A DNA stretch of 64,000 nt, taken from Eledone cirrhosa. Its lineage: Eukaryota. The notes under the pieces are model-generated. The model had not been told where the DNA came from. It searched no databases and worked only from the letters and a program-made list of their open reading frames with translations. This document shows positions 63,159 to 63,247 of this stretch, piece by piece (position 1 is the stretch's first letter; each line of letters opens with the position of its first letter). The stretch covers positions 98,332,001 through 98,396,000 of the forward strand of contig OZ024746.1 in the NCBI GenBank assembly GCA_964016885.1. The letters are read 5' to 3'. Position numbers and translations under genes: made by a program.

Positions 63159-63247
63159 TCTCGGCAGAAGCGAAGGGATATTTAATCTTGACAACCGCTA
63201 ACGAGCGAGAAACGGCCGTCGATTACTTCCCTTTGCTTTTTCCGAGA
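63159..63247 (+). ncRNA. type I hammerhead ribozyme, U3-A8 core variant with extended stem I
   Basis: TCTCGGCAGAAGCGAAGGGA..TAATC-TTGACAA-cCGCTaacgAGCGa-GAAA-CGGCCG-TC-GATTA..TCCCTTTGCTTTTTCCGAGA. GUC triplet. Decayed sister at 56301-56393. Confidence 0.75.

Follow-up and report, generated by a model that had tools for sequence, protein, structure and literature searches.

Nucleotides C3 and G8 form a Watson-Crick pair in the active conformation of the hammerhead ribozyme, and a pair between positions 10.1 and 11.1 at the base of helix II is a feature of the hammerhead consensus, with U·U exceptions known. Covariation of the first of these pairs to U3-A8, and likewise a U10.1-U11.1 mismatch, has been described in several natural hammerheads by Perreault 2011 (PMC3088659), where earlier in vitro activity of the U3-A8 double change is also cited. 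U3-A8 hammerheads were subsequently reported from the Cercyon Penelope-like elements of Schistosoma mansoni with a dedicated descriptor that gave about 1,300 hits (Cervera and de la Peña 2014; PMC4209133). Natural cases are hence in print, and the U3-A8 variant as such, which an earlier note on the present DNA had singled out, is not new. As far as the parts of PMC3088659 drawn on here go, its variants include neither C·A nor A·A at 10.1·11.1 nor any lineage whose homologous repeat families differ in core state, unlike the families described below.

Two further groups of elements bear on this locus. Metazoan non-LTR retrozymes (coral, mussel, axolotl) resemble the tandem repeat families found here in their AT-rich units of 150-450 bp with one type I hammerhead each, in a self-paired predicted circle and in a weak helix III; in the axolotl HHR_Amex2 motif, moreover, helix II opens with a U·U mismatch, as in families A2 and E here, but the U3-A8 core and the C·A or A·A at 10.1·11.1 of our families set them apart from what the passages drawn on here describe (PMC7229834). 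Transcription of arrays, dimer cleavage, circularisation and reverse transcription of more than one unit by a Penelope-like protein have been put forward for retrozymes (PMC7229834), the last step likewise in a further proposal (10.64898/2026.07.22.740005). The Cercyon minimal hammerheads share with our material the core covariation, the type I topology, the palindromic helix III, the dimer model and the Penelope-like context (PMC4209133). Their direct counterpart here is family C, which is about tenfold more numerous and whose helix with G10.1-C11.1 lacks the extra base, while family A, unlike the Cercyon pLTR motif, is an ORF-less tandem repeat with a ribozyme of canonical size (6-bp helix I, 14-nt domain II) (PMC4209133).

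The window, by which we mean the whole 64-kb stretch analysed, belongs to a 3.0-Gb animal genome, in surroundings of LINE and Penelope-like fragments. All five U3-A8 cores that the earlier note had listed were found where it placed them: TTGACAA at 63188, TTGAAAA at 56330, TTGATAA at 4960 and, on the minus strand, at 4795, and TTGAAAA at 56668-56662, also on the minus strand. They belong to three families (A, B and C; Table 1), which are unrelated, as had been claimed: beyond short chance matches no alignable sequence common to them was found.

Table 1. Features of the window that carry or surround U3-A8 hammerhead cores.
Feature	Position	Strand	Remarks
Hairpin with type I hammerhead and long outer extension of helix I	63159-63247	+	-35.8 kcal/mol, z -5.0
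Hammerhead proper	63183-63225	+	Basis: sequence, descriptor matches, pair table over 13 subfamilies
Helix I	63183-63187 with 63221-63225	+	
Core TTGACAA (U3 U4 G5 A6 C7 A8 A9)	U3 63188; A8 63193	+	
C10.1 opposite A11.1	63195; 63208	+	
Helix II	63196-63199/63204-63207	+	
GAAA	63209-63212	+	Domain II is 14 nt
Palindromic helix III, ACGGCCGT	63212-63219	+	
C17	63220	+	Predicted cut 3' of C17
Family A copy (putative retrozyme), one hammerhead	62938-63369	+	One ~308-bp unit (62938-63245), partial second (63246-63369)
Inverted 32-bp piece of the element's 3' end	62906-62937	-	87.5% reverse-complement match to 63037-63068; 5'-inversion/tail, Penelope-type mark
Family A sister copy, 5'-truncated	56296-56515	+	Core TTGAAAA 56330-56336; helix III broken; 3' end read from sequence
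Family C, 3' end of young Penelope-like element	56560-57208	-	Core TTGAAAA 56668-56662
Family B, head-to-head inverted pair of 3' ends	4663-5060		Decayed U3-A8 hammerhead in each (4960 +, 4795 -)

The motif at 63188 follows the order of a type I hammerhead, with U4 G5 A6 A9, G12 A13 A14, A15.1-U16.1 and H17 at 63189-63194, 63209-63212 and 63219-63220, and its 3-8 pair is present in Watson-Crick form as U3-A8, the pair-preserving double change that the earlier note had recognised. That the motifs are genuine hammerheads is borne out by the z of -5.0 of the hairpin and by a relaxed descriptor, which returned 15 motifs in the window (10 C3-G8, 4 U3-A8, 1 C3-A8) and one in the reversed window. The description of this copy as intact in all stems holds in part. 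Helix I retains five of the six pairs of family A (T for G at 63182) and is followed by an internal loop; the consensus pair at the base of helix II is replaced by a C10.1·A11.1 mismatch, which is fixed in the 63188 family and had been overlooked; and helix III consists of 2 bp and a palindromic GGCC loop, with a predicted pairing probability of 0.0 in the monomer. Relative to the A1a consensus, the hairpin carries substitutions at 63182 and 63241.

Standard searches do miss this ribozyme, as had been expected. Rfam gave no hammerhead match to 63100-63300 up to an E value of 10, and across the window just microsatellite-driven miRNA-type matches were seen among the 150 matches listed; even a C3-G8 sister reached HH9 only below threshold (E 0.079; 17.1 vs 52 bits). 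An assembly error as the source of the U3-A8 cores is ruled out by copy number, and no alternative letter at 63188 or 63193 occurred among the matches listed (40 of 58; four contig sets). The 63188 motif is thus a real feature that, in its sequence, resembles the dimeric type I hammerhead of a non-LTR retrozyme and for which cleavage is predicted.

The element around it comprises 1.4 units with a single ribozyme. Its direct repeat (62938-63046 and 63246-63363) is 82% identical, no ORF of 100 amino acids was found across 62938-63369, and the GC content is 38% in 62001-64000. The sister copy at 56330 (78% identity to 63153-63253) matches the family pattern and fails the descriptor. Genome-wide, an exact family A pattern with positions 3 and 8 left free had 143 matches (none in the reversed-pattern control); by hand count, the 100 of these that were listed comprised 92 U3-A8 cores, eight mismatched ones and no C3-G8. 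At three loci (L013, L019 and L039; L numbers are our locus labels), tandem copies hold a pair of ribozymes at a spacing of 316-328 bp, with no intervening ORF. Copies differ from their own subfamily consensus by 8-22% (median) and family A is hence old. As a predicted circle, the unit gave z values of -6.4 (L019) and -3.9 (L123, a relative described below) against 40 shuffles. Tandem units of 150-450 bp with a hammerhead, lack of an ORF and of LTRs, and low GC are all features of non-LTR retrozymes. At L105:5102-8279, a 1.53-kb tandem duplication holds three family A ribozymes; here a bigger repeat has engulfed one copy.

Inversions and a tail of 30-40 bp have been described for insertions of Penelope-like elements (PMC8557442, PMC11167929). 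Among 59 family A copies, 37 have the inverted piece within 330 nt upstream, and the 3' ends peak near +170 (12/59) and +200 (11/59) from U3, bins past +215 being left unused as they run into the (TA)n tracts that often flank these copies. As read from the sequence, the inversion and the paired 3' ends of family A match the marks of Penelope-like insertions. These shared marks, together with a weak endonuclease fragment (28%) just outside the family A element at L011, could be taken to mean that family A is the pseudo-LTR end of an undiscovered autonomous Penelope-like element and not a protein-free retrozyme. We consider this quite unlikely: the units recur every 308-328 bp, each with its own ribozyme and without an ORF before the next, a homologous family (A2) consists of pure 310-bp arrays, and in 60 loci (L001-L060) no Penelope-like ORF other than the L011 fragment could be tied to a family A element within 1.5 kb, an endonuclease match at L051 being part of a family C copy. 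We are instead fairly confident that 63159-63247 is a U3-A8 type I hammerhead motif and that the ~308-bp tandem repeat around it, present here as an old copy, is likely a non-LTR retrozyme of the non-autonomous kind. Penelope-like enzymes probably inserted it; for its RNA, self-cleavage 3' of C63220 is predicted in the dimeric form only.

For such a retrozyme, a tandem array of family A units would be transcribed, and two neighbouring hammerheads would pair through the palindromic helix III, cut, and free unit-length RNA, which would then circularise as in known retrozymes. A Penelope-like reverse transcriptase with a GIY-YIG endonuclease might copy more than one unit into AT-rich DNA and could leave the 5' inversions and the two 3' ends about 30 nt apart that are seen in the copies; U3-A8 would keep the 3-8 pair of the active fold. 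Folding predictions are consistent with a dimer. The active fold of the monomer lies 2.8 kcal/mol above its best fold, with helix III not forming, whereas the dimer reaches -84.9 vs -71.6 kcal/mol for two monomers and contains an 8-bp helix III, in a co-fold model that also makes helix I intermolecular and cannot draw a true double hammerhead. Helix III itself is palindromic, which suits dimer formation, and has a predicted self-duplex energy of -14.1 kcal/mol. The 63159-63247 monomer is accordingly predicted by these models to cleave poorly and to need a dimer partner. Since the window copy has one ribozyme, no partner in cis and two substitutions in its hairpin, it is probably inert.

The U3-A8 cores of the other two families sit in different surroundings. 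Family C can be assigned by its sequence to the Penelope-like elements, as a young and very abundant one with a U3-A8 core. Full copies carry a GIY-YIG domain upstream (E 1.2e-7), which exceeds the Pfam cut-off in all three frames scanned; RT motifs were read by eye in L102-L104, and the hammerhead follows the end of the RT-EN ORF by about 1.0-1.1 kb in L103 and L104. Full copies also have the CX2-5CxxC linker that is a feature of the Neptune clade, and a hammerhead in a pseudo-LTR, 5' truncation and inversion were all found; the U3-A8 core distinguishes family C from the Neptune/Nematis-type elements described in the source (Craig et al. 2021, PMC8557442). A 28-mer of family C has 12,338 exact matches in the genome (12,270 with U3 and 68 with another base) and none in reversed-pattern controls. 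The window copy carries C at U16.1 (56640), a position at which U is kept in 21 of 23 listed copies. Family B (TTGATAA, 5-bp helix II, ACCGGT, U17) is far smaller, with 56 exact matches (none in the reversed control), of which a hand count assigned 49 to U3-A8 and none to C3-G8. Its window copies have C at U16.1 (4960) and a lost helix III palindrome (4795). The shared sequence of family B extends at most about 250 nt upstream of the core; its parent ORF was not found at L063 and L343, an RT fragment beside L063 not being tied to the family.

Further elements of the window are recorded here as observations. An 83-bp piece is 100% identical between 55881-55963 and 56373-56455, the latter within the family A sister copy; it occupies the centre of an adjoining inverted hammerhead element (55684-56168), an arrangement that would fit copying from the flanking locus at the time of insertion. 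Two inverted C3-G8 hammerhead pairs, both with U10.1·U11.1, lie at 55837(-)/56015(+) and 26334(-)/26347(+). Six more C3-G8 hammerheads, at 5902(-), 36073(-), 55214(+), 58098(-), 36590(+) and 57622(-), show either a long helix II or a minimal helix III, as is usual at Penelope-like ends, and a hammerhead-like motif with a mismatched C3-A8 core at 43832(-) adjoins a long hairpin (43973-44137). RT/endonuclease fragments of other Penelope-like families occur at 1469-1750(+), 9395-9946(-) and 34190-34576(-), the last 1.5 kb downstream of the 36073 hammerhead, and to the right of the window another one (L107:6141-7836, minus strand) has a C3-G8 hammerhead 600 nt downstream; between these other hammerheads and RT frames we found adjacency only, with no firm linkage. 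LINE-type fragments at 12605-15573(+) and 17824-18483(-) gave weak endonuclease and zf-RVT matches and an RVT_1 match.

Family A has a close relative with the other core pair. A tandem repeat at L123 (family A2) shares 70% identity with family A in an alignment of 408 bases; its core is C3-G8, with U10.1·U11.1. With a pattern anchored on the shared helix I, C3 gave 18,417 matches in the genome (control 5), and all 100 of these that were listed are 310-bp head-to-head A2 arrays. Such arrays are young and near-identical at L123:2058-2715 and L213-L242, and A2 is the best candidate in this genome for an expressed circular RNA. Young retrozyme arrays with C3-G8 cores and units of about 420-510 bp are also seen at L158, L192 and L118 (families E, E2 and F), and a second branch, D, unites a C3-G8 family (165 exact matches) with U3-A8 families. 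An octamer, ATGCAAAT, stands 80-100 nt upstream of the core at L335, L305, L315, L158, L192, L136 and L110; it is conserved in D, E, F and part of the A1e copies; A1a-d and A2 lack it. Newt satellite 2 has a snRNA-type promoter.

A tabulation of positions 3 and 8, as the earlier note had suggested, gave a divided answer. In 100 evenly spaced 10-kb stretches (1 Mb), a strict descriptor requiring at least four helix I pairs returned 34 matches (none in the reversed control), namely 29 C3-G8, two U3-A8 (one with an insertion), one C3-A8 and two U3-G8, so that at copy level U3-A8 was not above the mismatches; the demand for four helix I pairs is likely to make this descriptor miss most family C copies. 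With the anchored pattern, by contrast, U3-A8 had 717 matches (control 3), against about 31 expected under independence (from hand counts of 40 C3-A8 and 55 U3-G8), with 70 matches for C3 without G8 (control 4) and 99 for non-C3 with non-A8 (control 15); A3 or G3 with A8 is excluded from these counts. Copies are not independent, however, and counts are inflated by descent, so that the family level weighs more. The master element had become fixed for U3-A8 and handed this state down to all its copies. As the state is inherited within each family, U3-A8 copy counts do not represent independent events, and the repeated double substitution once inferred from the window reduces to five copies that took their state from three founders.

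For an analysis at the family level, fetched copies were sorted into 13 subfamilies by best match to hand-picked seeds, a few rows being misassigned. The 3-8 pair is intact in all 13 consensuses (8 U-A, 5 C-G). U4, G5, A6, A9, G12, A13 and A14 are invariant, H17 is never G, helix III stays self-complementary, and two-sided changes with several pair types maintain pairing at the helix I positions in 12-13 and at II.2-II.4 in all 13. A tree was built from the five best copies of each subfamily (65 in total), nine of which were dropped (seven mismatch copies and two truncated long-branch ones). On the 56 copies used, the 3-8 state needs two changes, and a single origin of U3-A8 was rejected both with positions 3 and 8 masked (p-AU 1e-116) and with the whole catalytic domain masked (p-AU 5e-8). 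Support for A1 monophyly was 49/47, and the DUA group formed a clade in one tree and not in another. On a tree that includes them, mismatch copies are scattered, with six changes for seven rows, a value as low being reached in 80 of 500 shuffles; those in A2 arrays stand among C3-G8 neighbours, and a few copies with the same mismatch are clustered in one array or duplication. From these sequences we infer that the retrozyme lineages have swapped C-G and U-A at least twice, with no mismatch fixed in the 13 sampled subfamilies.

C>T and G>A are the commonest type of mutation, and U3 and A8 might accordingly be two ordinary transitions, neutral products of decay or drift in a genome rich in AT and not subject to selection as a pair. 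Old copies indeed often carry single mutants (e.g., family DCG at about 10% divergence), and independent switches could be shown for two cases only, so that a sign test gives p 0.5. Yet we give such a neutral origin hardly any credence, given that whole families have U3-A8 as their majority state, that all 68 family C matches without U3 retain A8 and none is C3-G8, and that no mismatch is fixed in any sampled subfamily, mismatch rows being scattered on the tree. Swapping between C-G and U-A likely reflects selection to keep the RNA self-cutting. The selection for cleavage that the earlier note had proposed is in this sense upheld for the 3-8 pair at the family level (13/13 paired, at least two switches) and not for the copies at hand: it acted on the master elements and not on the window copies, most of which are damaged.

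A pair could also be kept for folding only, with the hammerhead serving as a binding or template structure for a Penelope-like protein and cleavage being incidental. Data on a lizard Penelope-like element lend themselves to such an interpretation, as RNA with a dead ribozyme was inserted in vitro as usual and RNA-seq gave no reads ending at the cleavage site (PMC11167929), and the relaxed 10.1·11.1 position, paired in 3 of the 13 consensuses only, suggests a weak catalytic demand. We nevertheless regard it as unlikely. The 3-8 pair is an established part of the active conformation and rescue by the double mutant has been cited (PMC3088659), the other catalytic letters are all invariant with H17 never G in the consensuses and helix III self-complementary throughout, and coral, mussel and axolotl have retrozymes of like build that cleave and form circles (PMC7229834).

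Other traits go along with the core pair in these retrozymes. Among parsed copies, helix III measures 8-13 nt in 66/67 from U3-A8 subfamilies, against 6 nt in all 110 from C3-G8 subfamilies, and C17 is found in 53/67 of the former vs 2/110 of the latter, an association that rests on two contrasts and on cleanly parsed copies. Families B and C break this link, in that they combine U3-A8 with a 6-nt helix III and U17 or A17. The 10.1·11.1 position reads C·A in 63 of the 73 copies placed in A1a-e; DCG and DUA1 have A·A here, whereas U·U is found in A2, E and E2. With C10.1·A11.1, a pair that is usually conserved is lost, which may reduce activity; a plant satellite-RNA hammerhead with extra unpaired bases on both sides of helix II may be a precedent. 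The U3-A8 retrozyme subfamilies are all old, while C3-G8 is the core of A2, E, E2 and F alike, which diverge by 1-4%. Tentatively, and as a possibility that we hold to be somewhat doubtful, the superfamily could be viewed as a natural epistasis experiment in which the weaker U3-A8 pair requires a longer helix III together with C17 to be viable here, the 10.1-11.1 position varies without constraint (C·A, A·A, U·U, A-U, G-C), and U3-A8 is perhaps ancestral and gave way on two occasions to C3-G8, in the families that are dominant in the genome today.

A literature search that took in few subscription papers met natural U3-A8 in PMC3088659 and PMC4209133 only, and found no report of U3-A8 retrozymes, of core-pair switching inside one superfamily or of C·A at 10.1·11.1. 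While U3-A8 on its own was already known, the young, 70%-identical C3-G8 sister of the 63188 family and the switching between pairs are what is new, and the value of the material lies in the comparative set. In this genome, several retrozyme subfamilies and a Penelope-like family of 12,000 copies escape CUGANGA descriptors and Rfam, and counts of hammerheads and retrozymes in similar genomes are hence probably underestimates. With homologous retrozyme families carrying both core pairs in one genome, selection on the 3-8 pair becomes testable on natural sequences, and so does the dependence of this pair on helix III, on the cut triplet and on 10.1·11.1.
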